Of a stretch of 14,092 nt of DNA, positions 1-14,092 are shown piece by piece; the first letter of the stretch is position 1; every line of letters begins with the position of its first letter. This DNA comes from a virus. Its lineage: Duplodnaviria > Heunggongvirae > Uroviricota > Caudoviricetes. The stretch covers positions 1 through 14,092 of the IMG/VR virus record IMGVR_UViG_2541047894_000002; one strand, given 5' to 3'. The position numbers and the translations under genes were made by a program. The notes under the pieces are model-generated. The model saw only the letters and a list, made by a program, of their open reading frames with translations, made no database searches and was not told the origin of the DNA.

Positions 1-396
1 GCAACACCAAAAGCGGTAAAGGCCGCGTATGACCTTGCTAACGGGAAATACACTGCACAGGACGCCACCACAGCGCGAAAAGGTCTTGTCCAGCTCAGTA
101 GCGTCACCAACAGCGATTCTGAAACGCTCGCCGCAACACCAAAAGCGGTTAAGGCAGCGTATGATCTTGCTAACGAAAAATATACCGCACAGGACGCCAC
201 CACAGCGCGAAAAGGCCTTGTTCAGCTCAGTAGCGCCACCAACAGCGATTCTGAAACGCTGGCGGCAACGCCAAAGGCGGTTAAGACAGCGTATGACCTT
301 GCTAACGGGAAATACACTGCACAGGATGCCACCACGGCGCGGAAAGGTCTTGTTCAGCTTAATAGTGCCATCAACAGCGATTCTGAAACGCTGGCT
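1..396 (+). repeat. Three tandem 132-bp (44-codon) near-identical repeats inside the tail fiber gene; a fourth copy starts at 397 and diverges after about 30 bp
   Basis: Repeat unit gcaacaccaaaagcggt...gattctgaaacgct(c/g)gc(c/g/t) restarts at 1, 133, 265 and 397 with only a few substitutions. Each encodes ATPKAVKAAYDLANGKYTAQDATTARKGLVQLSS(V/A)TNSDSETLA. Window begins inside the array, so more copies may lie upstream. Confidence 0.9.
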
Positions 397-1746
397 GCAA
401 CACCAAAAGCGGTGAAGTCTGCCTATGACAATGCTGAAAAACGTCTTCAGAAAGATCAGAACGGTGCGGATATTCCGGGAAAGGATACCTTCACGAAAAA
501 TATCGGTGCCTGTCGTGCTTATAGCGGTGCTTTGAGCACTGAATCCGGAAACTGGACAACCGCTCAGTTTATTGAATGGCTGGATTCCCGTGGTGCATTT
601 AATCATCCGTACTGGATGTGCAAAGGCTCCTGGTCATATGCAAATAACAAAATCATTACGGATACCGGATGTGGTGATATCCACCTGGCTGGTTGTGTCG
701 TCGAGGTCATGGGAACTAAATCTGCAATCACTATCCGAGTGACCACGCCGACAACATCAAGCGGTGGCGGTACAACCAGCGCGCAATTCACTTACATAAA
801 TCATGGGGACGGCTACTCCCCCGGCTGGCGTCGTGACTGGAATCGTCAGGGCGACGCAATGACCGGAACGATTAATCAGGATGGCGGAAGCCAGAATGCC
901 TATATGTCTACGGCCTTATGTTCAGGCACCAGAGGCGGCAAAAAATATCTCAGAAAGTTTCGTGGTGGAGAAGGAGACACTATCTGGCATGAAACAGTAC
1001 AGGCTGGGGTAATTCGCTGGGCGACAGGTAATACTGATGCTCAGGAAGAATTATCACTCAGCTCCGCTTATGGTCTCCGTTCTAGAGGTGAAATTACATC
1101 ACTCAGTGCTAATGGTCTGCGCATTGCTTATGGCAATTATGGATTCTTTATCAGGAATGATGGTGGCAGCACATATTTAATGCTGACGACCTCTGGCGAT
1201 AAATTTGGGACATGGAACGGTTTAAGGCCGCTGACTATCAATAACGCTAATGGCGGAGTGTCAATGGGGCATGGCCTGAGTGTTACTGGTGATATTGTCT
1301 CAAGTACCAAAGTACGTGCCGGTAGCGGGAAAAAACTCACGGTCAGCAGCAGTAATACATCCACGAAGGAAGCCGCATTCAATTTGTGGGGAAACTCAAG
1401 TCGCCCGGTGGTAGCTGAATTAGGTGATGATGCAGGCTGGCATTTTTACAGCCAAAGAAATACAGATAACAGCATCACTTTTGCTGTTAACGGGCAGGTA
1501 TCACCATCTAACTATGGCAACTTTGATTCACGTTATGTCCGGGATATTAGACTTGGTGGTGCGTCATCCTATAAACCAGCAAATAACGGGACAACATGGA
1601 CGCATCAGACTCCATCTGGTTGCGCGTATACCGGGATAATTGTTCAGGATACAGGCTCAAATTCTGCCGATAATATTGGTGGTGTTTATTACAGACCAAT
1701 TCAAAAAAATATTAATGGCACATGGTATAACGTATCGAGTGTTTGA
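1..1746 (+). CDS. Phage tail fiber protein (5' partial; frame 1 is open from base 1, ORF track shows only from the internal GTG at 412)
   Basis: Frame 1 has no stop from 1 to the TGA at 1744-1746. The repeat motif KGLVQLSSATNSDSETLAATPKAVK resembles the lambda Stf / phage tail fibre repeat. C-terminal 440 aa is Gly/Ser/Thr/Asn-rich as in receptor-binding domains. Followed by a tail fiber assembly gene with overlapping stop/start region. Confidence 0.85.
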   Translation, partial: ATPKAVKAAYDLANGKYTAQDATTARKGLVQLSSVTNSDSETLAATPKAVKAAYDLANEKYTAQDATTARKGLVQLSSATNSDSETLAATPKAVKTAYDLANGKYTAQDATTARKGLVQLNSAINSDSETLAATPKAVKSAYDNAEKRLQKDQNGADIPGKDTFTKNIGACRAYSGALSTESGNWTTAQFIEWLDSRGAFNHPYWMCKGSWSYANNKIITDTGCGDIHLAGCVVEVMGTKSAITIRVTTPTTSSGGGTTSAQFTYINHGDGYSPGWRRDWNRQGDAMTGTINQDGGSQNAYMSTALCSGTRGGKKYLRKFRGGEGDTIWHETVQAGVIRWATGNTDAQEELSLSSAYGLRSRGEITSLSANGLRIAYGNYGFFIRNDGGSTYLMLTTSGDKFGTWNGLRPLTINNANGGVSMGHGLSVTGDIVSSTKVRAGSGKKLTVSSSNTSTKEAAFNLWGNSSRPVVAELGDDAGWHFYSQRNTDNSITFAVNGQVSPSNYGNFDSRYVRDIRLGGASSYKPANNGTTWTHQTPSGCAYTGIIVQDTGSNSADNIGGVYYRPIQKNINGTWYNVSSV

Positions 1747-1748
1747 TT

Positions 1749-2282
1749 ATGATGCATTTAAAAAATATAAAACCGGGCAATCCAAAAACCAAAGAACAGT
1801 ACCTGTTAACTAAAAACTCCAGCGTTGTCTGGTTATTCGATGAAGATGGTAAAAACTGGTATGATGAACAAAAGAACTTTCAACCAGATACTATAAAGAT
1901 TGCATATGATGAAAATAATGTCATATGCGACGTGCAAATGGATGTAACTGCAATTTGCCCAGAAGGAAAAAGTGTTGTCGAGTTGCCCAATATCACAGCA
2001 AACCGACGTGCTGATATTTCAGGTAACTGGATGTTTAAGGATGGCGCAGTCATTAAACGTGTGTATACCGAAGAAGAGCAACGATTGCAGGCTGAAAACC
2101 AGAAACAAAGGTTATTACAACAGGCCAGAGAAAAAACGCAGTTCTGGCAAACCCAGCTTACTTTGGGGATTATCACTGATTCAGACAGACAGCAACTGAT
2201 GAACTGGATGCGATACGTGCAACAGATTGAAGCCACTGATACCTCTGAATTGCCCGTTACATTTCCGGAACAACCAGAATAA
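1749..2282 (+). CDS. tfa: Tail fiber assembly protein (Tfa / P2 gpG-like chaperone)
   Basis: N-terminus MMHLKNIKPGNPKTKEQY... and C-terminus ...TDTSELPVTFPEQPE match the conserved Tfa family pattern as recalled; sits immediately downstream of tail fiber gene. ORF track start at 1743 is a TTG; ATG at 1749 preferred. AT-rich relative to neighbours. Confidence 0.85.
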   Translation: MMHLKNIKPGNPKTKEQYLLTKNSSVVWLFDEDGKNWYDEQKNFQPDTIKIAYDENNVICDVQMDVTAICPEGKSVVELPNITANRRADISGNWMFKDGAVIKRVYTEEEQRLQAENQKQRLLQQAREKTQFWQTQLTLGIITDSDRQQLMNWMRYVQQIEATDTSELPVTFPEQPE

Positions 2283-2315
2283 ACGATAAGACCAGAATAC
2301 CGGGTCTTATCGTTT
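2281..2315. terminator. Putative bidirectional hairpin terminator between convergent tfa and U
   Basis: aaACGATAAGACC-agaataccg-GGTCTTATCGTtt: 11-13 bp perfect stem at 2283-2293 / 2303-2313, followed by tttctgtt on + strand; lies in the 41-bp gap between the tfa stop (2282) and U stop (2324). Confidence 0.45.
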
Positions 2316-2323
2316 CTGTTAAA

Positions 2324-2812
2324 TCAGAACAGCCCTTTAACTGAACTGGCCGCGTTGTTAATGGATGCTGTCACCTTATCTTTGAAGCCGGACAGCATAT
2401 CGCTGAACGATGAGGATTGCAGGCGCTCCCGCAAATCCTCATCACAGCGTTCAAGGGTCAGTGAAAATTCTATCTTTTTCGCCTTACCGTAGCGATCAAA
2501 CTCGGAACTGGTCGTATTCGTTCCGGTCAGGACATACATGCCGTAAATCTGCCCGACGCCATCAATAAGAGGCCAGGGGCGTCCTGTATACGCCTGCGTG
2601 GTCAGCAGCGACAGCGACACTTCGCCACCTGTAATTTCAGGATAAAGCACACCAGAAAGAACAATACGATCATCGCCTGCCCCGATATACTGCCAGCTTG
2701 CTGAACGGTTAACGCGTTCATTTTTCACATGTCGCCAGCTTTTATTTTGCTGTAACTGCTGATGCGGCAATGTGCGCAGCTCAAAAACAAACATGCCGTA
2801 GATCATCATCAT
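2324..2812 (-). CDS. U: Tail protein gpU-like
   Basis: Translation MMMIYGMFVFELRTLP...SWRH...GAGDD...LSGVLYPEITGG...WPLIDG...IYGMYV...TTSS resembles P2 gpU as recalled. ORF track start 2818; GAGGAG RBS abuts the first ATG, so the ATG at 2812 (8-nt spacer) is preferred. 6-nt gap from T stop (2825). Confidence 0.8.
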   Translation of the reverse strand: MMMIYGMFVFELRTLPHQQLQQNKSWRHVKNERVNRSASWQYIGAGDDRIVLSGVLYPEITGGEVSLSLLTTQAYTGRPWPLIDGVGQIYGMYVLTGTNTTSSEFDRYGKAKKIEFSLTLERCDEDLRERLQSSSFSDMLSGFKDKVTASINNAASSVKGLF

Positions 2813-2824
2813 GGCCATGACTCC

Positions 2825-5641
2825 TCAATCTTTATCGTAAAAACTGCCACGCCCGGCACGGGCGCGCCGTTCCATTTCTGCCCTGACCATTTCACCGACC
2901 AGTTTCGCTAGTTCGCGGGGATTCTGTGTAACAACGTTATGCAGATGAACATGAATTTCACCGCCAAATCCGGAGGCAACAGGTTCCCGGTTACGGGAAG
3001 TTGCAGGAACTGATGCCACTGGCGATCGTATGGCCTCCGCCACCGGGCGGGAGCTGGCCGCAACAACAGGGACCAGCGCCGGAGGCAGCGGAGCCGGAAC
3101 CACGGGTGTGATATTAATTGCGGTGGCAGGCTTACTGACCTGCGCAATCTTCCGCTCCTGCCACTCCCCACGAACAACAAGTGCGCGGGGCAGGTTCTTA
3201 AAGACAATATCGCCGGGGCCAATGCGTTTTTTCGTCTCATCAACCAGCTTACCTGTGTTATCAGCAATTTTGCTGAGTCTGCGTAGCGTCCCGGTATTGC
3301 TGTCTGTGAGCGGTTTATTGTCTTTGGGTTTATCACCTCCGGTGCCATTGCCATTTTCCACAGGCTTCGGCGGATTGATTTTCGCCAGGTCCCCCTGAAG
3401 CAAGGCAACCTTGTCCTGAAGAATGGCCGCACGCTGTGCGTCTTCGATTTTCTTTCTCGCCCTTTCCGCTTCATCCGGAAGAACACCGAGTTTTTCAAGT
3501 ATCCACGCCAGCGTATCCAGCAACATTTTTGCAGGCGTCAGAACAAGCTGTAACGCGCCACCAAGAACGTTACCGAATATCTCGCCAGCACTGGTACATT
3601 TATCCAGCGTTTCCTTGCTGGACTCCATCGGTGACAGCAGCGATTTGAACCAGTTAAACACCTGGCTGATCCCGCTTCCGATTGCGTCAAAAACAGGACC
3701 AAACTGTTCAAAGGTTTCGCGCAACGGGATCAGCCTTTCCATAATCCCGCTGAACACCCCGGCAAAAAATGCCCTGATGGGATCCCAGTATTTCGAGATA
3801 AGAACGGCAGCTCCGGCAAGCGCAGCCACGATAAGACCAACCGGACTGAATAGCGCCCCGATAGCACCTCCCAGCAAAGAAACGGAACCCGTCACCATTC
3901 CCCATAGTGCTGGCAGGACCCTGACAGCATTCATTGATCCGGTCAGGAGAGAAAAACCAAGACGCAGTTTTGCCAGCGGGCCAGCAAGCACACCAATAGC
4001 CAGCGACAACGAGCCAACCGTTGCAGTCATTGCCAGCAACGCACCGCCTGCTATCAGTAGCTGGCGCGTCAGTACCGGATGGGCCTGCGCCAGCGCCGTC
4101 ACCCTTGATACCACCCACGTGAGCCACTGCGTGACAGAACGCAGCGGACCGTCAATCAGATCTGCAATGCGGATGCGCAACCCTTCCCATGCACTGCCGA
4201 GTGATTTCAGATCGCCGTCAAGGTTGTTGGCCATAACCTTTGCTGTGCGTTCAGCCTCACCGCGCGCGCCTTCAAGTTCTTTTCTCAGTTTGGGTAAGGA
4301 ACCGTCACCCGCTGCATCAACGAGCGCCATAAACGATGTGAAAGCCTCTTCTCCGGCAATGTCCTTAAAGAACGATACCCGGTCAACTTCCCCGTATTTG
4401 CGGGTGGCTTTATAAAGGTCAGCCAGCACATCCTCCATCGGGCGCATTTTGCCGTTCGCGTCAGAGACTGCCACACCAAGCTCTTTCAGCGCCTCTGCTG
4501 CTGCCTTTGGCGGTGATGCCAGACGAGCCAGGCTGGCACGCATTGCCGTCCCGGCATCACTCCCTCTGATACCCATATTCGCCAGCACGCCCGCCATCGC
4601 TGCGGCCTGCTCCAGCGATATTCCCAGCTTACCCGCCACCGGACCTGCATATTTCATGGTTTCACCCAGTGCGCGAAGGTCAGTGTTGGTACGGGTAAAC
4701 GCTGCGGTGAGTGTGTCACCGACCCGGTCCATCTGGTCAGCAGAAAGGCCGAACTGCGTCAGGATATTTGAGCCAATATCTGCCGTCTCGCCGAGATCCA
4801 TACCGCCAGCCGTTGCCATGCTCAGCACGCTGGGAAGCGCAGCCTGAATGGCCTGCGGAGTGAAGCCAGCCATTGCAAGAAATGCCTGTCCACTGGCGGC
4901 ATCGCCTGCGGTAAACTGCGTTTCAGAGCCAAGTTTTAACGCCTGCTCACGCAGCGCCTTAAACTGCGGGCTGTTCTGGTCGATTCGCGTCAGTGCCTGA
5001 ACGCGGGACATCTCTTTGCCGAACCCGATCGCAGGCTGCAAAAAACGCCCCGCAGCATAGCCGCCCGCCGCTGCCGCACCAATTGCCAGCGCACCACCTG
5101 TTTTCAGTTTTCCCGCAGTTTCCTGCGCGCGCGAATACCGCTCACGCGCCCGCGTTACACGCGCAAGTGCCTGCCGTTCGCGTTCAAGCTGGTTGTTGTA
5201 CTGTTCGGTGCGTCTGATGGCCTGCTGGATGGTGTTATCGCTGCCTGTCAGGGAAATGCCGTGGCGTTTCAGCTCTCCGCCAAGCTCCCGCATTTTCTGA
5301 ATTTCCCGTGTGCGCGATTCATTCAGGCGTTCAAGCCGGGTGCTTAACTGCTGCATCAGCTTTTGTTGCTTTTCGCTGAGCACTGTACCCGTGCGTTGTA
5401 ACTGATTAAGGGCGTTAAGCTGGCGTCGTGCTTTCACGATACCCGCATCCGCTTTACTGACAGCGTCGCGGGCGCGCTCAAATGAACGCGCCTGACGCTC
5501 GAGATTTTTGATCGCCCCCTGCGTTCGCTGGATGGAGTCACCAAACTGCCCCATCAGGCGGCGGGCGTTTTCGGCAGGCCGGGTCAGCCTGTCAACGGCG
5601 CTGAAAGCGACCCGGATATCAAGAGTCTTCATTGTCTGCAT
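2825..5641 (-). CDS. T: Tail tape measure protein (gpT-like), about 939 aa
   Basis: Large Ala/Gly/Leu-rich protein with coiled-coil N-terminal part and hydrophobic glycine-rich central segments, downstream of the E/E' chaperone pair as in P2-type tail modules. Start ambiguous: ATG at 5641 (MQTMKTL...) or 5632; ORF track reports upstream extension to 5668. Start overlaps end of E'. Confidence 0.85.
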   Translation of the reverse strand: MQTMKTLDIRVAFSAVDRLTRPAENARRLMGQFGDSIQRTQGAIKNLERQARSFERARDAVSKADAGIVKARRQLNALNQLQRTGTVLSEKQQKLMQQLSTRLERLNESRTREIQKMRELGGELKRHGISLTGSDNTIQQAIRRTEQYNNQLERERQALARVTRARERYSRAQETAGKLKTGGALAIGAAAAGGYAAGRFLQPAIGFGKEMSRVQALTRIDQNSPQFKALREQALKLGSETQFTAGDAASGQAFLAMAGFTPQAIQAALPSVLSMATAGGMDLGETADIGSNILTQFGLSADQMDRVGDTLTAAFTRTNTDLRALGETMKYAGPVAGKLGISLEQAAAMAGVLANMGIRGSDAGTAMRASLARLASPPKAAAEALKELGVAVSDANGKMRPMEDVLADLYKATRKYGEVDRVSFFKDIAGEEAFTSFMALVDAAGDGSLPKLRKELEGARGEAERTAKVMANNLDGDLKSLGSAWEGLRIRIADLIDGPLRSVTQWLTWVVSRVTALAQAHPVLTRQLLIAGGALLAMTATVGSLSLAIGVLAGPLAKLRLGFSLLTGSMNAVRVLPALWGMVTGSVSLLGGAIGALFSPVGLIVAALAGAAVLISKYWDPIRAFFAGVFSGIMERLIPLRETFEQFGPVFDAIGSGISQVFNWFKSLLSPMESSKETLDKCTSAGEIFGNVLGGALQLVLTPAKMLLDTLAWILEKLGVLPDEAERARKKIEDAQRAAILQDKVALLQGDLAKINPPKPVENGNGTGGDKPKDNKPLTDSNTGTLRRLSKIADNTGKLVDETKKRIGPGDIVFKNLPRALVVRGEWQERKIAQVSKPATAINITPVVPAPLPPALVPVVAASSRPVAEAIRSPVASVPATSRNREPVASGFGGEIHVHLHNVVTQNPRELAKLVGEMVRAEMERRARAGRGSFYDKD

Positions 5642-6148
5642 TCCCGCTGCGAAGTGCCGCCCGCTCACGCCAGCTAACCACTTCGCCGGGCGTCATCATG
5701 AAGATTTCGGCGGGCGACCAGTTAAAAATAACGGCAATATCTGCCACAAAGTCTTCTATGTGCTCAAAGCACACAACCGTGATCAGGCTTCCGTCGCCTG
5801 TTCGTTCTTCCCGCCAGAGTCCGCACCGCTCAAAAAATTTACGGCAACCACACATAACTGAATAAAGTCACGGGATGCCATTTTTTTGATCGTCACTTCA
5901 TCCAGTCGCGGTGATGTCACGCGTGACAGCAGCGTAAACATGGATTCCGCTTTCAGATTCAGCACATCAGACAGCGACAAATCTCGCAGAGATCCAGCCT
6001 GCTCAATAGCTCCGGTGATCTCCACATACGTGATTTTTTCGCCGCCTCGCTCAATTGGTTGGGTAAGTTTTACGCCACGCTCACTGGTTTCTTTCACAGT
6101 GTCAGCAACGACCGTGTTTTCGGTATCGATGTTTTTCGTCTCTTTCAT
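5619..6148 (-). CDS. E+E': Tail assembly chaperone E+E' fusion produced by programmed -1 ribosomal frameshift (predicted about 176 aa)
   Basis: ORF 5619..5855 lies in the -1 frame relative to E (start coordinates 6148 mod 3 = 1, 5855 mod 3 = 2). Slippery heptamer T_TTT_TTG occurs in E in the correct register (0-frame codons aaT TTT TTG at - strand 5837..5831). After the slip the reading continues ...NFF-ERCGLWREERTGDGSLITVVCFEH... to the TGA at 5621-5619. Confidence 0.6.
5783..6148 (-). CDS. E: Tail assembly chaperone gpE-like (121 aa, 0-frame product)
   Basis: Located between tail tube FII and tape measure T as in P2; AAGGAG RBS 8 nt upstream of ATG at 6148; contains the frameshift heptamer near its 3' end. 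Confidence 0.8.
   Translation of the reverse strand: MKETKNIDTENTVVADTVKETSERGVKLTQPIERGGEKITYVEITGAIEQAGSLRDLSLSDVLNLKAESMFTLLSRVTSPRLDEVTIKKMASRDFIQLCVVAVNFLSGADSGGKNEQATEA
5831..5837 (-). other. Programmed -1 frameshift slippery site TTTTTTG (P2 E/E' type)
   Basis: + strand caaaaaa at 5831-5837 = - strand TTTTTTG; in-frame as T_TTT_TTG relative to the E reading frame; -1 frame open downstream for 70 codons. Confidence 0.6.
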
Positions 6149-6202
6149 CAGGAAACTCCTTTCAGTCAGAGGCGACGCACTGCGCCGCCTGCATATTACT
6201 TA

Positions 6203-6715
6203 TCAGCCAAGCCCGAGCGCAGAACGGATGCGATCGGGCACAATGTCCTTGCCGTCCTTCCGGTAAATGAAGTTCAGCAGGTCAATCTCCCACAACGGGC
6301 GATCGTTAACACTCAGCTTGTAGTAGGTGTTTTTAATGGCGTAAGTGTGTGATGTGGCTTCGCCCTGTTTGGCTTCCCCCATATCAATTTCCGTCACACG
6401 TCCGCGCATTTCGACTTCATACAGGTCGCTTTCTGCATCGGTGTAATATTCACCCGCAAAACGCAGCAGCGTGCCGTCAATCGTGCCGCCATACTTAAGG
6501 AACAGCTCACGAACTGCGCCCCCCATGACAAAGCTCGCATCAAGCGCGGAGTCGTCCAGACCGAGATCAATACTTACCGCACCCATCATGCCACCACCCC
6601 GGTAGCTGTCGGTTTTGCGCGTCAGCTTAGGCAGAGTGACGGACGTCACCTTACCCACTTCGTTTTCACCATCCACAAACAGCGTAAAAAAGCGAAGATG
6701 TTTTGGCACAGCCAT
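6203..6715 (-). CDS. FII: Tail tube protein (P2 FII-like)
   Basis: MAVPKHLRFFTLFVDG...VTLPKLTRKTDSYRGGGMMG...DLGLDD...RFAGEY...VEMRGR..EID.GE.KQGE matches the P2 FII pattern as recalled; GGGAGG RBS; start overlaps FI stop (TGATG). Confidence 0.85.
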   Translation of the reverse strand: MAVPKHLRFFTLFVDGENEVGKVTSVTLPKLTRKTDSYRGGGMMGAVSIDLGLDDSALDASFVMGGAVRELFLKYGGTIDGTLLRFAGEYYTDAESDLYEVEMRGRVTEIDMGEAKQGEATSHTYAIKNTYYKLSVNDRPLWEIDLLNFIYRKDGKDIVPDRIRSALGLG

Positions 6716-7899
6716 CAGGCACCTCCCAGCACCGCAAATGCGGGTTCAAAGTATTCATCAGTAAACGTCTGGTAAAGCTCCATGTCTTCCAGTGGCGGAA
6801 CGGGCGTATATTTGTAGCGAATACGCACACGTCCCTGACGTAAATCCGTGGTGCTGTTATCCACCACGTCATACCAGCACTCCGCGCCAATCAGTTTCCC
6901 GGCAGTAACCAGTGAATCCAGTTTTGCCCTGATGGCACTGATAACATCCTTCACGTTCGCAGGCGTCAGTGGACTGTCGATGGTTTCAAACTGCGCTTCC
7001 GCAATTGAATCAGCCAGCACCTGTGCGGTTCGGGTATACACCTCAAAGATGTAGGCGTTCGTTTCCGGTGTGCGGTTGCCCCAGAAGCGGAACCCGTTGC
7101 GACGAATAATGGTCGTGATTTCTTTGTTGTTAAGGCTGTTGGCATCACTGTCTTCGGCCTGCAACGACCAGAAAACATGCCTCGACATCCCCAGCACATT
7201 TTTAACCGGAACGTTGGACAGCGATTTGTGCCATCCCTGCTCATGGTCAATGTACGCACGAAGGCCGCACGCATAGGCAGGCGCGGGGAACGTTTCGTTT
7301 TTGCCACTTTTCGGGTTGTAGGCGATGAAGTCCGGCCATAAGAGCATCACCTCACGTTCGTTGAATTTCTGGCGGTAGGTAATCGCCGCAGCCATCGTGT
7401 TACAGCCGTGACATGAGGCATACACAAACGCGCGCAGTTTACCTGCAATCACGCACAGGGATTTTGTTACAGCCTCCGTGTCCAGCTCCGGCGCGGCCAG
7501 AATACGCGGACGGTATCCGATGCTTTCATCCTGCTCTGCAACAAGCAGCGCATACATCCCCGTATAGCTGCCGTCATCCTCAGAACCACCGATAACCAGT
7601 TGATCCTGCGTCTTTCCGTCTTCTTCTTTGTGTTCAGCCACGCGAACGACGATCACCTTTGTGCTCACCTGGTCTGCGATGGCCTTAAGCGCACGATAAA
7701 GCGTCCCCGTTGTCCCGCATTTTCCCAGCACGTCATTGACGCGGGTCAGCAGTGTGGGCTTGTTCAGCGGGAACAGCTTCGCGTCCGCATCATCCGCCGT
7801 TGCCACGATACCGATAACGCTGGAATCAACATCGTTAATCGCTGTTACCAGGTCGGTATTTTCCGTAACACGGGCACCATGAAAACGAGTTTCACTCAT
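6715..7899 (-). CDS. FI: Contractile tail sheath protein (P2 FI-like)
   Basis: 394 aa; motifs ...FPLNKP...LRAFVYASCHGC...WPDF...EQGWHKSLSNV...IRRNGFRFWGNRT...NYTRTAQV...RYKYTPVPPLE... match P2 FI sheath as recalled; AAGGGG RBS 8 nt upstream of ATG at 7899. Confidence 0.9.
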   Translation of the reverse strand: MSETRFHGARVTENTDLVTAINDVDSSVIGIVATADDADAKLFPLNKPTLLTRVNDVLGKCGTTGTLYRALKAIADQVSTKVIVVRVAEHKEEDGKTQDQLVIGGSEDDGSYTGMYALLVAEQDESIGYRPRILAAPELDTEAVTKSLCVIAGKLRAFVYASCHGCNTMAAAITYRQKFNEREVMLLWPDFIAYNPKSGKNETFPAPAYACGLRAYIDHEQGWHKSLSNVPVKNVLGMSRHVFWSLQAEDSDANSLNNKEITTIIRRNGFRFWGNRTPETNAYIFEVYTRTAQVLADSIAEAQFETIDSPLTPANVKDVISAIRAKLDSLVTAGKLIGAECWYDVVDNSTTDLRQGRVRIRYKYTPVPPLEDMELYQTFTDEYFEPAFAVLGGA

Positions 7900-8056
7900 A
7901 GCTTCAGCCCCTTGTATCCGTTAAATGATTCGGCAACAATCATCACCCACCACGCGCGTAATCTCACCCCTGCGCCGTTCTCCCGCCACGGCGACAACAA
8001 AAAGCAGTAACCCCCTACGCACGCACATGCGACCATGCCGCACAGGGAGGGAACAG
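7900..8056. promoter_or_regulatory. Divergent intergenic region between FI (-) and D (+); presumed promoters for both
   Basis: 157-bp non-coding gap flanked by divergently oriented start codons with RBSs on each side. No exact TGT-N12-ACA (Ogr/late-promoter type) dyad found by eye; only one TGT in the region (7913-7915). Confidence 0.3.
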
Positions 8057-9166
8057 ATGACCGATACCACCATGCAATTGCTCAGTCAGAGCACAGACCC
8101 CGTGAAAATGCCGGATTTTGATATTCTCGCGGAGGGGGAAACACTGTCCGGCGTGGCAGAGCGCCTGATGAGCCTGTCACTGACCGACAACCGGGGATTT
8201 GAAGCGGACCAGCTCACCATCACGCTGGATGATGCGGATGGTCAGTTGCAGCTACCGCCACGGGGCGTGCGCCTGACGGTTCTCATTGGCTGGAAAGGAG
8301 AACCGCTGACAGAAAAAGGCACTTACATTGTTGATGAAATCGCTCACGAAGGACCGCCGGACAGGCTGACGGTTTCAGCCAGAAGCGCAGATTTTCGGGA
8401 TGAATTTAACGTTAAACGTGAGGTGTCCTGGCATGATGTGACCGTTGAGCGCGTGGTATCCGCCATCGCTCATCGGTATGGTCTGAAACCGCAAATCAGC
8501 GAAATGCTGATGGATATAGAAATCGACCACGCCGACCAGACCGAAGAAAGCGACATGTCCTTTCTTACGCGCATGGCGGAAATGCTGGGCGCAATCACCA
8601 CAGTAAAAAGCGGTAATCTGTTATTCATCATGCCCGGTGGTGGCGTGAACGCACAGGGCCAGCCGTTGCCATCGTTCGCCATCACACGCAGCAGCGGCGA
8701 TCGCCATCAGTTCCGCATTGCTGACCGCGAGGCGTATACGGGTGTACGCGCCTACTGGCTTGATCTTAATTACGGGAAAAAGAAAAAAGTCAGCGTGAAA
8801 CGCCGCAAACCGCAAAAACCCAAAAAGGAGAAAAGCAGCAGCCGTGAAGGTGATTATATGGAAGGCGCGGAAGGCAACGTGTTTGTGTTACGCAAGACTT
8901 ATCAGAACGAGCAGGCAGCAAGACGCGCAGCGGCGGCAAAGTGGCAGCAGCTACAACGCGGAGCCGCAGCGTTCTCCATCACACTGGCACGTGGACGCGC
9001 AGAACTCTACCCCGAAATGCATGGCACGGTAACAGGATTTAAAAGCGAAATTGATAATCAGGACTGGATTATTGCAAAAGCCGAGCACACCATTGATAAC
9101 AGCGGCTTTACCACGCAGCTTGAACTTGAGGCAAAAATCCCGGAATGGATAGCAGAAACAGCTTGA
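8057..9166 (+). CDS. D: Tail protein D (P2 gpD / phage late control D family)
   Basis: 369 aa from ATG at 8057 with GGAGGG RBS 5 nt upstream; motifs LSLSLTDNRGFEADQL.I.LDDADGQ, SARSADFR, SWHD.T, FLTR.AE, ITRS.GDRH.F.IADR.AYTGV.A.W, lysine-rich KKKKVSVKRRKPQKPKKEK linker, REGDYMEG..NVF, FSI.LA.GRA, NSGFTT.LELE match gpD as recalled. ORF-track N-terminal extension from 7925 rejected. Confidence 0.85.
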   Translation: MTDTTMQLLSQSTDPVKMPDFDILAEGETLSGVAERLMSLSLTDNRGFEADQLTITLDDADGQLQLPPRGVRLTVLIGWKGEPLTEKGTYIVDEIAHEGPPDRLTVSARSADFRDEFNVKREVSWHDVTVERVVSAIAHRYGLKPQISEMLMDIEIDHADQTEESDMSFLTRMAEMLGAITTVKSGNLLFIMPGGGVNAQGQPLPSFAITRSSGDRHQFRIADREAYTGVRAYWLDLNYGKKKKVSVKRRKPQKPKKEKSSSREGDYMEGAEGNVFVLRKTYQNEQAARRAAAAKWQQLQRGAAAFSITLARGRAELYPEMHGTVTGFKSEIDNQDWIIAKAEHTIDNSGFTTQLELEAKIPEWIAETA

Positions 9167-9211
9167 TCAGCTAAGATGTATTGCACGCCTACCCCCTTCA
9201 GTTTTCTGACT

Positions 9212-9235
9212 GTCCGCTCTGTGCCAAGAGCGGAC
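9212..9235 (+). terminator. Hairpin downstream of D (weak candidate terminator / island boundary element)
   Basis: GTCCGCTCT-gtgcca-AGAGCGGAC, 9-bp perfect stem, followed by atatataattt (AT-rich, not a clean U-tract). Lies at the GC-content transition into the AT-rich island. Confidence 0.25.
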
Positions 9236-9334
9236 ATATATAATTTCGTACTGTATCAATCGAAAGGAATCAGCTCCTTCCTATCTCAAATATGAGACAC
9301 TGCTTATAGCACCACTGGAAATTGGTTAAACATC

Positions 9335-11374
9335 TCAACTTTGCCAATCATCAGCTATCTGTTGCCAATTAACTTTCCGAGGTTCTTTTGTAGTGCTAGA
9401 CCACACATCCCAAAAATCAGGATCATCAGATTGCGGTCGTTGTTTTTCAGTAAGCTCTTTCATTCTAACTAAAACAGGAAGTTCTGAAGCCCATCCAAGT
9501 AAAATAGCATGCCTAGATGGTAACGATGGCAGCTCTCTCAACAGCCCTCTCATATTATCTGGAACAAGTCTATGTACTTGCTCTTGATCTCTATCATTAC
9601 TAATCCTGTGCAACAAAAAAGTATTACATTGAGATAAAACCGTCGGAGATAGCTCTGATGGCCTTTGGGAAGAAACAACAAGGCCTAGCCCAAACTTTCT
9701 TCCTTCCCGTGCAATCTTTTCAAACACCTTGCAACATATATCAGAGACTGACTGAGTTTCACTATCTTCCTTGTAACGTTTAATAAACGTATGCGCTTCT
9801 TCTGCAACTAAAACTGTTGGTAGCGGCCTTCCATTTAATCTTCGATAACGTTGTAGTGCTTCAAAAGCCACCCTAGAAATTACAGCTGTTACCAAATGAA
9901 TTATTTCATTTGGTACTAGAGATAAATCTATAACAGTTATAGATCCTTGTTCATTTTTACCGAGAAAAGTGTCTAACCAATTAGTTAAACTTATAGGCTT
10001 TACAGAATCATTGGTTACTGCACTAATACGAGTGTCACCTAGCATTGTTCGAATACGAGTCAAAAGAAACTCAACGAATTGTTCTGTACCTGTTTCTTGA
10101 GCCAGAGCTTCGAGATATGCGACAAAATCATCGCCTTTAAAACGCATAGGCGCATCTTCGCTTTTTGGAAGAAGTTCTTGTTCATCTCCCCCTAGAGCTG
10201 TATATGCATCTCTGAATCCATTAATCAACAACTCAATCTCGGAAACAACAGGCTTTGCTGGCCAAGAAGATCCACTTCGTGAAGAAAGATACGTATTTAT
10301 TGTGTTTATTAGCTTATCGAGCGATTTATCAACAATTCTCTCGTTTAAGATAGAAATACTATCTCTCCAAGAACCCAAAGTTTCAACCAAACCTTTAGCA
10401 GATCCACTATTCACATATATCTGACCTTGACTTGCCTGCTGTCTCATAGATACAAGAAGGATACCGCAAAAGCGTTTGGCTTGAATTTTCACATCATCTT
10501 CTGATAGAAGATTATTCCTCATTGCCCTCAAAGCACGACGTAGTAAAGGAAGTTGCACCTTTGAACTTGCTTGAGTGAAAGCAGCCCACTCAGAACTATT
10601 CCATAACCATGAAGGTACTTTAAGATCCATCTCTCCGACATCGATGTTAGCCTCTACACGTAATAGTTTACCCTTATATCTTGATTCTGGCCCTAAAGCT
10701 CTACTATATTCTCCGTTCGGATCAAGTATTATAAATCGAGCATTTGGAGATTTTCCCTGTTGTAAAACAGCATCAAGAGACCATTGAATTAAGCCGGCCA
10801 CCGAACATGATTTACCACTACCCGTATTACCTAAAACAGCTATATGTCGTCCGAAAAGTCTATCGGGGTCTACTTTTATTTCAGCATTGTTAGCTAGGGG
10901 GCTATCCCCTATTTTTACCCTTCTATTATCACCTGATTCAATTATTGATTGTAATTGTCGGTCAGTAGGCAAAAGCACAGAGTCACCAACCGAAGGGAAA
11001 GCATCAGTTCCTCTCGTGAACCTGAAACCTTCGTTTTTTCTATCAACTCTCAATGTACCAACTGGATTGATACTAAGCTTTTTAAGTGGGAAAGGAAGGT
11101 CTATCAACCCAAAATCTTGTAAGCCTCTTCTTTTGGGATATGGCGAGTTTTCTATTGCAATCCACTCAACTTGCCCAACAAGAAACCCGTCATCACTACG
11201 GATTAAAATATAACTATTTATTCTAGGAAAATTACGAGGCGCCCCACCTTGAAGTGATACTGAATCAGGAGAATCAATCTCTAAAGACACCCTAATTTCA
11301 TTAGGTGATACAAACTCAACAGTTCCAATTCTTAGTTGTTCTATTTTTTCTATTGGTAAATAACTCATTGTCAT
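9335..11374 (-). CDS. HerA-like (FtsK/HerA superfamily) ATPase, partner of SIR2 protein
   Basis: Walker A HIAVLGNTGSGKS; Walker B-like PTVLVAEEAHTF; GLGLVVSSQRPSEL (arginine-finger region typical of HerA/DUF87); N-terminal beta-rich region (GTVEFVSPNEIRVSLEID) consistent with a HAS-barrel. ATG at 11374 overlaps upstream stop (ATGA); GAGGT abuts that ATG, so ATG at 11368 (6-nt spacer) may be the real start. Confidence 0.8.
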   Translation of the reverse strand: MTMSYLPIEKIEQLRIGTVEFVSPNEIRVSLEIDSPDSVSLQGGAPRNFPRINSYILIRSDDGFLVGQVEWIAIENSPYPKRRGLQDFGLIDLPFPLKKLSINPVGTLRVDRKNEGFRFTRGTDAFPSVGDSVLLPTDRQLQSIIESGDNRRVKIGDSPLANNAEIKVDPDRLFGRHIAVLGNTGSGKSCSVAGLIQWSLDAVLQQGKSPNARFIILDPNGEYSRALGPESRYKGKLLRVEANIDVGEMDLKVPSWLWNSSEWAAFTQASSKVQLPLLRRALRAMRNNLLSEDDVKIQAKRFCGILLVSMRQQASQGQIYVNSGSAKGLVETLGSWRDSISILNERIVDKSLDKLINTINTYLSSRSGSSWPAKPVVSEIELLINGFRDAYTALGGDEQELLPKSEDAPMRFKGDDFVAYLEALAQETGTEQFVEFLLTRIRTMLGDTRISAVTNDSVKPISLTNWLDTFLGKNEQGSITVIDLSLVPNEIIHLVTAVISRVAFEALQRYRRLNGRPLPTVLVAEEAHTFIKRYKEDSETQSVSDICCKVFEKIAREGRKFGLGLVVSSQRPSELSPTVLSQCNTFLLHRISNDRDQEQVHRLVPDNMRGLLRELPSLPSRHAILLGWASELPVLVRMKELTEKQRPQSDDPDFWDVWSSTTKEPRKVNWQQIADDWQS

Positions 11375-12783
11375 ACCTCAACTTCGGCTGAATTACCTAA
11401 CTCTTTGAACTGCATAAAGCCTCTTTGTTTGAGCAACTCTGCCATCTTGATTGATGCTTTATCAATAGCTGGTTTAGGTAAATAGTTATCAACTAAAGTT
11501 TTGAAGTCTCCTAAATGATCTCCCATCAAAAGGGTAATCTGTGCTTTTCTTCCACTATTACTAATGAAACGCATAATTCTGCCAAGTGGATCGCCAAAGG
11601 CTATTATTACTATATGAGTGGAAGGTACCGTAAGCATGTCTTCAATTACTCTATTGATATGCTCATCACCAAAGCTATAACCATAAGTGACTAATGTGCT
11701 ATTTGGACGGCTAGTTGCTGCTGCCAGATCTCGAAATAGCTCAACATAAGGATACTCGGCTGTTTCTCTGTCTTTTACTGAATTAGGGTAAATCATCAGT
11801 TTTTCATAGCCATTGCTTTGATGACCTTCGGCTTCCAAAAACGGCTCAACAGAACGTGCTCCAAAGGGTAAGCCAAAGCGCCTAATCGCATTATTTTGTT
11901 CATGCCAATCAAGGGAACCATGAAGTTTAGTAAAACGTGCCACGCCCTCCAAGTATCTTGGTTCACCACGGATTCCAGGAGGATTATAATGATAATCAAC
12001 TTCTAATCTTGAGGATCGAAATACTGGAGCAATACTTCCTACAAAGCGATCAATAAGTCTTAAACCAGCAAGCTCAGCACCCACTTCAATAATACGGTCA
12101 TAATTTGTTGTAAAGATATGTAGCCTATCGCGAGTGGCAGTTCTACTTGCAAAGCTCATCAAAAAACTAACTAGATAGTTGAAAGTTTCCTCTTTCCGGG
12201 CTGGTTCAGCAGTTTTGATTAAATATTCTCCTTTAATTATAGATTTAGAAAACTCCCCCAAGCATCTAGAAAGCTCGCCTTTGAGCTCGCCCAAGTCTGC
12301 TTTTAAGTTTCTATAAGCAGAATAAGGAGGTGGCGGATTTTCTGGTTGAGGAGTATTTAACACCGTTAAAATTTCGAGACCTTTAATAAGTTCATTGATA
12401 GTTCTAATTTGATCTTCTATATTTCCTCTATCGCGACCTGCAGCTTTTGCAGCCTGAGTGGAAAATTCATCTATTTCGCTTTTACATACTTTTAAATCAT
12501 TAATCCACCCCATCCCTACTGGAGATAAACCTGTAGCTGATTTTTGAATAGCCGAGCTTAAGCCTGCACCGATTAATAAATTTAAATGCTCTGATTGGAA
12601 GAGAGCTGTTAGCCAGGGCTCAATATTTTGGCGCAATTTCTCAATTGATATTTCTGCCCCCTGTTCTCCCCATACACAGTTCTTCGAGAGGATAAAAGGA
12701 TGAGAATCAGCATGCTCGCCAGAATTAGATGATAGATCAATAATTTCTGATATACTGCCAACTTTTATATGTTGAATACTCAT
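11371..12783 (-). CDS. SIR2-family (SIR2_2 / DUF4020-like) protein, predicted NAD+-consuming effector
   Basis: Motifs in order: LNLLIGAGLS (Gly-rich NAD-binding loop), IFTTNYDRIIE (TTNYD), KLHGSLDW (catalytic-His region), YGYSFGDEHINRVIEDM. ORF track start at 12843 is TTG; ATG at 12783 (MSIQHIKVG...) preferred but weak SD, so start is uncertain (12783-12843). Stop overlaps HerA start. Confidence 0.75.
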   Translation of the reverse strand: MSIQHIKVGSISEIIDLSSNSGEHADSHPFILSKNCVWGEQGAEISIEKLRQNIEPWLTALFQSEHLNLLIGAGLSSAIQKSATGLSPVGMGWINDLKVCKSEIDEFSTQAAKAAGRDRGNIEDQIRTINELIKGLEILTVLNTPQPENPPPPYSAYRNLKADLGELKGELSRCLGEFSKSIIKGEYLIKTAEPARKEETFNYLVSFLMSFASRTATRDRLHIFTTNYDRIIEVGAELAGLRLIDRFVGSIAPVFRSSRLEVDYHYNPPGIRGEPRYLEGVARFTKLHGSLDWHEQNNAIRRFGLPFGARSVEPFLEAEGHQSNGYEKLMIYPNSVKDRETAEYPYVELFRDLAAATSRPNSTLVTYGYSFGDEHINRVIEDMLTVPSTHIVIIAFGDPLGRIMRFISNSGRKAQITLLMGDHLGDFKTLVDNYLPKPAIDKASIKMAELLKQRGFMQFKELGNSAEVEV

Positions 12784-13207
12784 AAATGCACTTCTTTTAT
12801 TTGTGTTAAAAAACATACTTTTGTAGAGGCAAACGAGTGCCAAGAGTATGAAACTTAGCGATTAAGTTCGAATCTTACACCTCCCAAAGCCTCTGAGAAT
12901 TATCAACCTAACCCAAAGGAACTCAATCAGCGTTTTATTTTAGCACGACTAAATAACTAGTAGATAGCGTCAAAGACAAACCGGGGAGATAAAAACTTAC
13001 AACACTGCCACCAGTAAAATCATCTACATACCAACAAGTTGCCTTCAATCACGTAGAATAATCCTACTAGTGCATAGTCAATCTCGACTACTTACTCAGT
13101 GAAAATTCAACTGCAAACTTCTGGTTTTTACTCAAAGCAAGCAGTTAGTTGGAATCAGTATTAGTACAACTTAGAATAATAGAAACACCACGTTAAGGGA
13201 GGTCGCT

Positions 13208-13468
13208 ATGTTCCGTTGTCCACTTTGTGGCGCGTCTGCCCGTATCCGCACCAGTCGTCCGGAAAATGACTCAAACACCGTGCGGCAAAAGTATTACCAG
13301 TGTAATAACCTGGAATGCGGCGTATGCTTCTCAACACTGGAAGCTTTTCATAAGTTCACATCAAAACACACCTCAGAAGTTCATTCTTCAGAAGACATAC
13401 CGTGGCAGGCTCTGCCAGCTTCACACAGGGGGAACAATCAGATGAGTTTGCCCTTATCTCAGAATTAA
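13208..13468 (+). CDS. ogr: Ogr/Delta-family zinc-finger late transcription activator
   Basis: MFRCPLCGASARIRTSR...YYQCNNLECGVCF: Cys-X2-Cys ... Cys-X4-Cys arrangement and N-terminal MF.CPLC....A..RTSR pattern of P2 Ogr as recalled; strong RBS AAGGGAGG 5 nt upstream; 86 aa. Confidence 0.85.
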   Translation: MFRCPLCGASARIRTSRPENDSNTVRQKYYQCNNLECGVCFSTLEAFHKFTSKHTSEVHSSEDIPWQALPASHRGNNQMSLPLSQN

Positions 13469-13528
13469 CGAGCAGAATTGCCGGAGTAACAAAAAAGCGA
13501 TAGATTACGCGCGGGTGCCTTTCGGCTT

Positions 13529-13792
13529 ATGGTCGGAGGGAATACCCGAAGGCCAGATGTGGAAAGGCCCCGGAAAACATCTCTGTTTAACCGAGGCCCT
13601 AACCGCATTACCTTGACAAGTGAAAGGTTAGCGCCTCTCCTGAAAAGGAGCAAGTGCTATGTCGCAAAAATCGCTTACGGCCATCACGTTCTGCGTGACG
13701 GCAATCCTCATCATCTGGATGCTGCACGGTTCGCTGTGCGAAATACGGATGAGCTTCTGGGGAGCGGAGTTTGCGGCGTTCTTACAGTGTAA
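13529..13792 (+). CDS. mok-like overlapping reading frame covering the hok-like toxin ORF (true start uncertain)
   Basis: ORF in a different frame (start 13529 mod 3 = 2, hok-like 13659 mod 3 = 0) spanning almost the whole toxin ORF and ending 7 nt before its stop, as in hok/mok/sok loci. No independent sequence support for translation. Confidence 0.3.
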   Translation: MVGGNTRRPDVERPRKTSLFNRGPNRITLTSERLAPLLKRSKCYVAKIAYGHHVLRDGNPHHLDAARFAVRNTDELLGSGVCGVLTV

Positions 13793-13799
13793 GCAGTAA
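13659..13799 (+). CDS. Hok/Gef-family type I toxin (46 aa small membrane peptide)
   Basis: atg tcg caa aaa ... cag taa encodes MSQKSLTAITFCVTAILIIWMLHGSLCEIRMSFWGAEFAAFLQCKQ: N-terminal hydrophobic helix followed by the SLCEIR motif and AAF, characteristic of Hok/Gef peptides. RBS AAAAGGAG 8 nt upstream. Below the ORF-track size cutoff. Confidence 0.65.
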   Translation: MSQKSLTAITFCVTAILIIWMLHGSLCEIRMSFWGAEFAAFLQCKQ

Positions 13800-13888
13800 G
13801 GAAACCGCGACGGGGGAGCAATCCCCCGTCACTCGGTTGCCAGGGTAAGGTCGATAAGGCACCCTATCTCACAGACATGAACAACAAA

Positions 13889-13921
13889 CCCGCAGCGTAA
13901 AAACTGCGGGTTTTCTTTTTT
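13889..13921 (+). terminator. Rho-independent terminator (likely 3' end of the hok-like mRNA)
   Basis: CCCGCAG-cgtaaaaa-CTGCGGG stem-loop followed by TTTTCTTTTTT. Preceded at 13809-13830 by a second hairpin GACGGGGGA-gcaa-TCCCCCGTC with a GNRA loop. Confidence 0.55.
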
Positions 13922-14065
13922 GGTATCCTCACCGATTGAAACAGTGATCAGACTATAAGACAAAGCCCACAATGTAGCGGGCTTACTCCCCTCTCCCTCC
14001 ACTGAATGTGGACACATAGTGGAACAAAGAGAGATAAAACATTATAAATCAATCTGTTATTGAAA

Positions 14066-14092
14066 TAAAAAAGGCCGCAGAGCGGCCTTTTT
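14066..14092. terminator. Bidirectional rho-independent terminator at window edge
   Basis: aaaaaAGGCCGC-aga-GCGGCCTttttt: GC-rich 8-bp stem flanked by A-run and T-run; truncated by window end, associated gene unknown. Confidence 0.45.

Follow-up and report, generated by a model that had tools for sequence, protein, structure and literature searches.

Mosaic anatomy of the gap between a SIR2-HerA defence operon and ogr in a P2-like Escherichia coli prophage

Does the long non-coding gap between a phage-borne defence operon and the divergently oriented late activator gene ogr serve both as one control region, or did each bring upstream DNA of its own? We addressed this question in a 14,092-nucleotide stretch of a Caudoviricetes record (IMG/VR IMGVR_UViG_2541047894_000002, positions 1 to 14,092; hereafter the window). 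It represents the right arm of a P88/Gemsvirus-type, P2-like prophage and has an identical copy beside ihfA in E. coli MFDS1006657 (NZ_CP073589). Its genes run in the order H and G (plus strand), U, T, E, FII and FI (minus), D (plus), HerA and SIR2 (minus) and ogr (plus), followed by hok/sok and host ihfA. The first gene of the defence operon, SIR2 (11371-12783, minus), matched Pfam SIR2_2 and the PADLOC SIR2 model PDLC04079 (E = 3e-155) and overlaps by 4 nt the second gene, which encodes a HerA ATPase (9335-11374, minus; PADLOC HerA, E = 3e-252; Pfam DUF87). Adjacent SIR2-domain and HerA-ATPase genes place the pair among the SIR2-HerA defence systems; it forms the same two-gene operon as the Nezha-type abortive-infection systems, with strong PADLOC matches, but its predicted products are distant from the solved SIR2-HerA structures (E = 4e-21). 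The SIR2 start was set at ATG 12783, as in the PGAP annotation and all orthologues, and not at the TTG at 12843 of a mechanical ORF list. ogr (13208-13468, plus) encodes an 86-aa Ogr/Delta zinc-finger late activator (Pfam Ogr_Delta, E = 4e-14; PGAP), and the tail gene D (7925-9166, plus; Pfam Phage_GPD) probably starts at ATG 8057, which is preceded by a GGAGGG Shine-Dalgarno sequence and yields a 369-aa product, as in P88. In the identical genome, RefSeq gives D only 266 aa (window 8366-9166) together with a small antisense pseudogene fragment. The 157-bp gap between FI and D (7900-8056) is the expected site of divergent late promoters, yet it contains no exact TGT-N12-ACA.

The gap between SIR2 and ogr (12784-13207, 424 bp) is the longest non-coding stretch in the window. 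A sequence-only reading had described it as an AT-rich, ORF-free leader shared by two divergent units, and the geometry of that description was borne out: RefSeq gives the same SIR2 and ogr starts at the identical MFDS1006657 locus and annotates zero features in the gap, and the longest wholly internal ORF in our search for hidden genes was 37 aa. Its GC content of 37.0% is indeed low against the phage backbone (52-55%; gene D, 54%; ogr, 47.5%), but it is nothing special within the island, where SIR2 and HerA each have 39%. The whole gap was found in 15 of 5426 complete E. coli genomes, always with the SIR2-HerA island and at identities of at least 98.9%, and a plasmid search with the gap sequence returned no match. 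No Rfam family of cis-regulatory RNA or sRNA came near its gathering score in the gap; at a permissive E-value, nqrA-II touched it with 23.4 bits (55 required) and KCNQ1OT1_5 matched mostly inside the SIR2 coding region with 26.9 bits (120 required), both with E ~0.4. The gap is a mosaic of four pieces that differ in origin, which we refer to as segments A to D in the direction from SIR2 to ogr. Since SIR2-HerA and ogr each brought separate upstream DNA, the gap is probably an ordinary cargo-slot junction with no shared control region.

We further compared the SIR2 side of the gap with the upstream DNA of SIR2 orthologues (82-89% amino acid identity) from Mangrovibacter, Edwardsiella, several Vibrio, Providencia, Shewanella, Colwellia and metagenomes, and found that ~190 nt (12784 to ~12972) could be aligned. 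Segment A (12784-12874, minus), which holds a Shine-Dalgarno-like AAGAAG (12796-12791, minus), is the spacer that natively precedes SIR2-HerA. Its identity to orthologues is 71-81%, and it can be aligned both with the 93 nt between recombinase and SIR2 in Vibrio and with the SIR2 upstream region at every orthologous locus. The best-conserved non-coding stretch was the block from -60 to -1 before SIR2. Segment B (12875 to ~12972, maybe to ~12990; minus) corresponds to the decayed 3' end of a tyrosine recombinase gene (about codons 160-198), with a relic of the stop codon at 12877-12875. In V. olivae, V. albus and V. mytili, SIR2 is preceded by the 93-nt spacer and, before it, by an intact 198-aa recombinase ORF (PF00589, Phage_integrase, E = 4e-18; catalytic domain only), with the 3' end of which the DNA of segment B aligns. 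Recombinase fragments (about codons 156-198) are still recognisable by tblastn at other SIR2-HerA loci; the relic in the window is the most decayed copy, ~100 nt long with stops and frameshifts, and a tblastn search for the recombinase gave no match in the window. Judged by these alignments, segment B is the relic of a recombinase and not a gene.

The identity of segment B to orthologues (64-73%) is close to that of SIR2 third codon positions (60-73%). Because segments A and B have diverged about as much as third codon positions, hitch-hiking with the cassette is enough to account for them, and the relic needs no functional explanation; on the same ground we ruled out that it was kept by selection for carrying a promoter. 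The unit that moved comprises SIR2 and HerA, the recombinase relic and 5' spacer upstream of them and ~130 nt downstream. Other settings of SIR2-HerA in E. coli are beside traN/TraU conjugal-transfer genes, in an ICE-like region, and beside tRNA-Phe, in an island. Segment A accompanies the cassette in both, as it does in Vibrio, Edwardsiella and Mangrovibacter. We also found a near-identical SIR2-HerA variant with a shorter relic (codons 172-197) in Vibrio, Providencia, Shewanella, Colwellia and a Planctomycetota MAG; its loci are L006-L008, L012, L013, L019, L110, L111 and L021, the last being the ICE-like traN/TraU locus of E. coli WP4-S18-ESBL-08. In three Vibrio loci (L009 of V. olivae, 165-3907; L010; L018), the intact recombinase and SIR2-HerA adjoin hsdS-like and hsdM-like type I restriction-modification ORFs, which suggests that the cassette in those genomes is embedded in a restriction-modification locus.

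On the ogr side, segment D (13125-13207, plus) comprises the right inverted repeat of a cargo frame together with the native ogr -10 and ribosome-binding site. Its outer part, the right inverted repeat (13125-13177), is degenerate in the window; its homologues are the 'right inverted repeat' of AJ512682/AJ512683 and the border next to ogr in 11 other cargo classes. The native ogr upstream region (13167-13207), which is common to cargo-free phages, carries CAACTTAGA at 13167-13175 and a Shine-Dalgarno sequence, AAGGGAGG, at 13195-13202. The D stop and the ogr ATG are 42 bp apart in the cargo-free phage P88_4B11, and this spacer is 90% identical to window positions 13167-13207; phage 500465-2, which has an unrelated 340-aa gene in the D-ogr slot, has 13133-13207 in common with the window. 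Just 3' of ogr lies a hok/sok-type module (13513-13799), with a sok-like RNA (57.3 bits, where the gathering score is 59; E = 1e-11), a Hok ORF (13659-13799) and an overlapping Mok-like ORF (13529-13792). About 1150-1550 E. coli genomes carry it together with ogr (1553 for the ogr-hok module). Partial matches to the enterobacterial sRNA STnc540, found on both strands of the host DNA near ihfA (14007-14092), were below threshold (31.3 against 38 bits).

D-ogr spacing was surveyed at 82 loci, 80 of them on viral contigs that encode close relatives of Ogr and the other two being the window and phage 500465-2. The spacing was 40-43 bp, that is, empty, at 46 of the 82 loci, and 36 held cargo of about 11 size classes (1.0-4.0 kb). 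This low-GC cargo (32-42%) is found in both orientations; among it are Thoeris (ThsA and a TIR protein), a PifA-like NTPase and PDC-S31. All cargo classes had a conserved D-side border and a conserved ogr-side border of ~80 bp, both of which were absent from empty sites. In the window, the D-side border is a left inverted repeat (9167-9236, plus) that begins directly after the D stop, with a degenerate CAGCTAAGA at 9170-9178 and a hairpin at 9211-9236 that scores terminator-like on the plus strand. This left repeat is homologous to the 'left inverted repeat' of AJ512682/AJ512683 and to the P2 site 15335-15365, just after gene G. BLAST with the D-side hairpin recovered 'left inverted repeat' features in AJ512682, AJ512683 and AJ512685 (the 'proviral Z-region' records of P2-EC53, P2-EC58 and P2-EC67) as well as P2 after gene G.

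When aligned, both borders proved homologous to the left and right inverted repeats that are annotated at the Z/fun locus. Within single loci, the similarity of left to right repeat was not significant (z <= 2.5), and the relationship between the two was visible only through a fixed-offset 16-mer test and through homology to the annotated P2 repeats. In that test, the left-repeat 16-mer CTGACAGTCCGCTCTG recurred inverted in right borders at a fixed offset with a mean of 5.1 mismatches, against 7.5 in shuffles, and the copy in the window had 6 mismatches. The alternative that the D-side flank is a decayed duplicate of the ogr 5' end (sharing a 'CPLC' motif) was discarded, as the local alignment was no better than shuffles (188/1000). 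A likeness of the borders to Tn3 or Tn7 ends was also rejected, because neither orientation nor target-duplication length fits those elements. By these sequence comparisons, the D-ogr junction is a defence-cargo slot in this common E. coli prophage lineage, with a repeat frame of the Z/fun type.

The variable Z/fun locus of P2-like coliphages was reportedly treated by Nilsson, Karlsson and Haggard-Ljungquist in 2004, in a paper whose title implies exchange by site-specific recombination at the repeats. In the present slot, as in the P2 Z-region, long imperfect inverted repeats enclose low-GC cargo for lysogenic conversion or defence, and both the D-side and the ogr-side border of the window align with AJ512682/AJ512683, including the hairpin core CTGACAGTCCGCTCTGTGCC...GCGGAC. 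Variable cargo between core genes and homologous flanking repeats are both found here, the right copy in the window being degenerate, but the position differs: the frame lies between G and FI in P2 and between D and ogr in the window. The FI-FII-E-T-U block (2324-7899) is inverted relative to P2, and the G-to-U junction is 41 bp long and without cargo (2282-2324). Moreover, the right repeat of the window abuts ogr, would supply the ogr -35 and lacks 33 nt relative to P2-EC58. The ogr upstream region resembles that of P2 (NC_001895) in that a weak -35 and a good -10 lie in the short stretch between D and ogr, and in the distance from -10 to ATG (~31-35 nt). In P2 this stretch measures 81 bp, and the annotated ogr -10, TAAAAT, lies 35 nt before the ATG. 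The terminator that the P2 record lists 'for ogr transcript and F operon' points to transcription reading into ogr in P2, whereas the window has 4 kb of cargo and a terminator-like hairpin between D and ogr.

P2-like variable loci, known since 2004-2006, are described in the available text of two studies as defence hotspots (PMC9122126; PMC13586616), for which the slots gpA-gpQ, tail-gene (Z/fun), int-att and int-primase are named (PMC9122126; PMC13586616). One of them also describes small intergenic pseudogene remnants as common in P2-like variable slots (PMC13586616), and SIR2 plus HerA is reported in P4 hotspots. The present locus has in common with these hotspots that defence systems of many kinds replace one another at a small number of constant positions among the core genes. 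The locus is a further example of the known P2-like cargo loci, and its local detail is a Z-region-type frame at D-ogr that overlaps the ogr promoter.

We next turn to the promoters, which the sequence-only reading had placed in the gap for both units. Promoter prediction and consensus matching did put the best candidates for each inside it, while its word 'leader' proved a misnomer, since most of the gap probably lies upstream of both transcription starts. A scan of the gap gave one sigma-70-like site per strand, each facing its own gene, although two such sites are no enrichment over shuffles (0.8 +/- 1.1). The sole plus-strand match is a candidate ogr promoter (13149-13177) with -35 TTGGAA, a 17-nt spacer and -10 TAGAAT. 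This -10, 31 nt before the ATG, is kept at empty and occupied sites. The -35 position at empty sites falls within the 3' end of D (TAGCGG or ATAGCA), and at occupied sites it reads TTGGAR from the right repeat in 21 of the 36 loci, with variant hexamers in four smaller cargo classes; the total hexamer score is 8-9 of 12 at occupied against 7-8 at empty sites, a small gain. On the minus strand, the sole match is a candidate distal SIR2 promoter inside the relic (12899-12926; -35 TTGAGT, 16-nt spacer, -10 GATAAT; 9/12). Its TTGAxT...GAxxAT pattern is present in all orthologues and encodes IEYLGVEIED where the recombinase gene is intact. A candidate proximal SIR2 promoter (12815-12843, minus; 8/12), with -35 TTGGCA (12843-12838), a 17-nt spacer and -10 AAGTAT (12820-12815), was below the threshold of the scanner and was read directly from the sequence. 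It lies within the best-conserved block, and neither the TAT of its -10 nor a GTTTG block varies among the upstream regions of 11 orthologous loci. Both SIR2 assignments are putative as to function. Two further candidates around the proximal promoter were rejected: the inverted repeat CATACTCTTG/CAAAAGTATG is specific to the window, is not conserved in orthologues and is probably not an operator, and a sigma-54 look-alike, TGGCAC...TTGC (12842-12829), has a GG-GC spacing one base short and a GC that is not conserved in orthologues.

Could these candidates nevertheless belong to a single bidirectional control region that places the defence operon and ogr under joint regulation or lets each interfere with the other? 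The genes are divergent, both best promoter candidates lie in one gap, and divergent transcription can couple neighbouring promoters via supercoiling. However, the candidates stand back to back with their -35 elements 222 bp apart, and we found no overlapping promoters, common operator or shared inverted repeat in the gap. The two halves also have separate evolutionary histories and recur independently: the ogr-proximal 41-83 bp recur in phages with no cargo or unrelated cargo, the same module serving 11 unrelated cargoes in either orientation, and the SIR2-proximal ~190 bp recur with SIR2-HerA outside phages. The 'shared' and 'coupled' of the sequence-only reading therefore gave way to two independent modules, and we regard joint control from this gap as improbable. 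Control of SIR2-HerA by Ogr itself through a late-type promoter, which would switch the defence on with the phage late genes, has proximity to ogr in its favour. Yet the Ogr box TGT-N12-ACA occurs 0 times in the whole window against 3.6 expected by chance, and the same SIR2 upstream region is found in hosts and elements without Ogr, so this alternative is very unlikely indeed. As the gap and island have 37-39% GC against 52-55% in the phage backbone, H-NS might bind this AT-rich DNA and damp the SIR2-HerA and ogr promoters in the lysogen. Such xenogeneic silencing would be compatible with an ordinary junction of two modules, but the ogr module also functions where the slot is empty and no AT-rich DNA adjoins it, and we consider silencing rather unlikely.

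The last alternative, control of SIR2-HerA by a functional RNA or a structured leader, concerns segment C as well as the SIR2-adjacent block. Segment C (~12973-13124) is an orphan AT-rich spacer of ~150 bp, assigned to neither strand, whose occurrences (15 of 5426 E. coli genomes and identical viral-contig and metagenome copies) were all with this island; we found no match to it in E. coli genomes beyond the island, in phages, in plasmids, in other cargo classes or at other SIR2-HerA loci. It contains a long imperfect hairpin (13009-13074; ~22 bp with G-U pairs) that is stable as minus-strand RNA only, with a minimum free energy of -34 kcal/mol, z = -2.1 to -2.6 and 8 of 200 shuffles folding as well or better, against z = -0.05 on the plus strand. 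This strand specificity and the conservation of the -60 to -1 block are what a functional RNA would explain. The hairpin lies upstream of both promoter candidates, however, and the scan found no promoter to transcribe it; its known copies are all at least 99% identical. For the SIR2 leader, the consensus fold of 11 orthologues was weak (-9 kcal/mol) and the window leader alone gave z = -1.5, on which grounds a conserved RNA structure there was rejected. With no Rfam family near threshold in the gap and a divergence of A and B that fits hitch-hiking, we doubt that an RNA element controls the operon and give the idea only a small chance.

Given that the sites stand back to back at least 222 bp apart, with no shared operator and no Ogr box, SIR2-HerA and ogr are most likely expressed independently. 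The cassette arrived with its own upstream DNA, made up of the ~91-nt spacer A and the decaying recombinase 3' end B, beyond which come the ~150 bp of orphan segment C, and the last ~83 bp (segment D) belong to the slot and the phage, with the right repeat giving the candidate -35 TTGGAA next to the native -10 TAGAAT and ribosome-binding site. In the mechanism that we propose, the defence operon would be read leftwards from a promoter within segment A or B and ogr rightwards from one within segment D, as two independent units. At empty sites, D and ogr may be co-transcribed, as the 42-bp spacing and the analogy with P2 suggest. In the window, 4 kb of DNA and a terminator-like hairpin lie between them, and cargo and hairpin together would uncouple ogr from D read-through, while the right repeat would keep a self-contained ogr promoter in place whatever cargo docked. 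Like the promoter assignments, this uncoupling is our inference. The sequence-only reading had also suggested that the island displaced the native promoter context of ogr, which is correct in part: the -10 and the ribosome-binding site are native and were retained, and the -35 now comes from the right repeat. Because the right repeat is common to all cargo classes, this replacement belongs to the slot as such and is nothing peculiar to the island. The island left the ogr core promoter in place but probably cut ogr off from gene D read-through, and the coupling of ogr to D has probably been changed by the cargo.

Overall, what had appeared to be a shared leader is resolved into a dissected junction, with a practical consequence for cloning SIR2-HerA 'with its native promoter': the conserved unit is the ~200 bp upstream of SIR2, and the ogr-proximal 83 bp are the phage's. 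The repeat frame may also bear on how such cassettes move. At three other places, SIR2-HerA has beside it the palindromic left-repeat hairpin (TGTCCGCTCTGTGCCAAGAGCGGACA) or a close relative of it, namely beside gpA in an Edwardsiella P2-like phage (L005, 5458-5487), on both sides of the cassette in Mangrovibacter (L004, 3533-3555 and 8582-8607) and upstream of the relic in the E. coli tRNA-Phe island (L020, 6714-6743). This hairpin may be a recombination site or merely a shared terminator. Since its relatives flank SIR2-HerA elsewhere and a recombinase gene or relic rides with the cassette, it is conceivable, if a long shot, that the inverted-repeat frame is a working recombination site for integron-like, site-specific cassette exchange in P2-like phages, with the right repeat acting as a portable ogr promoter. 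If so, the right repeat would keep the essential activator ogr expressed whatever cargo docked in the slot.
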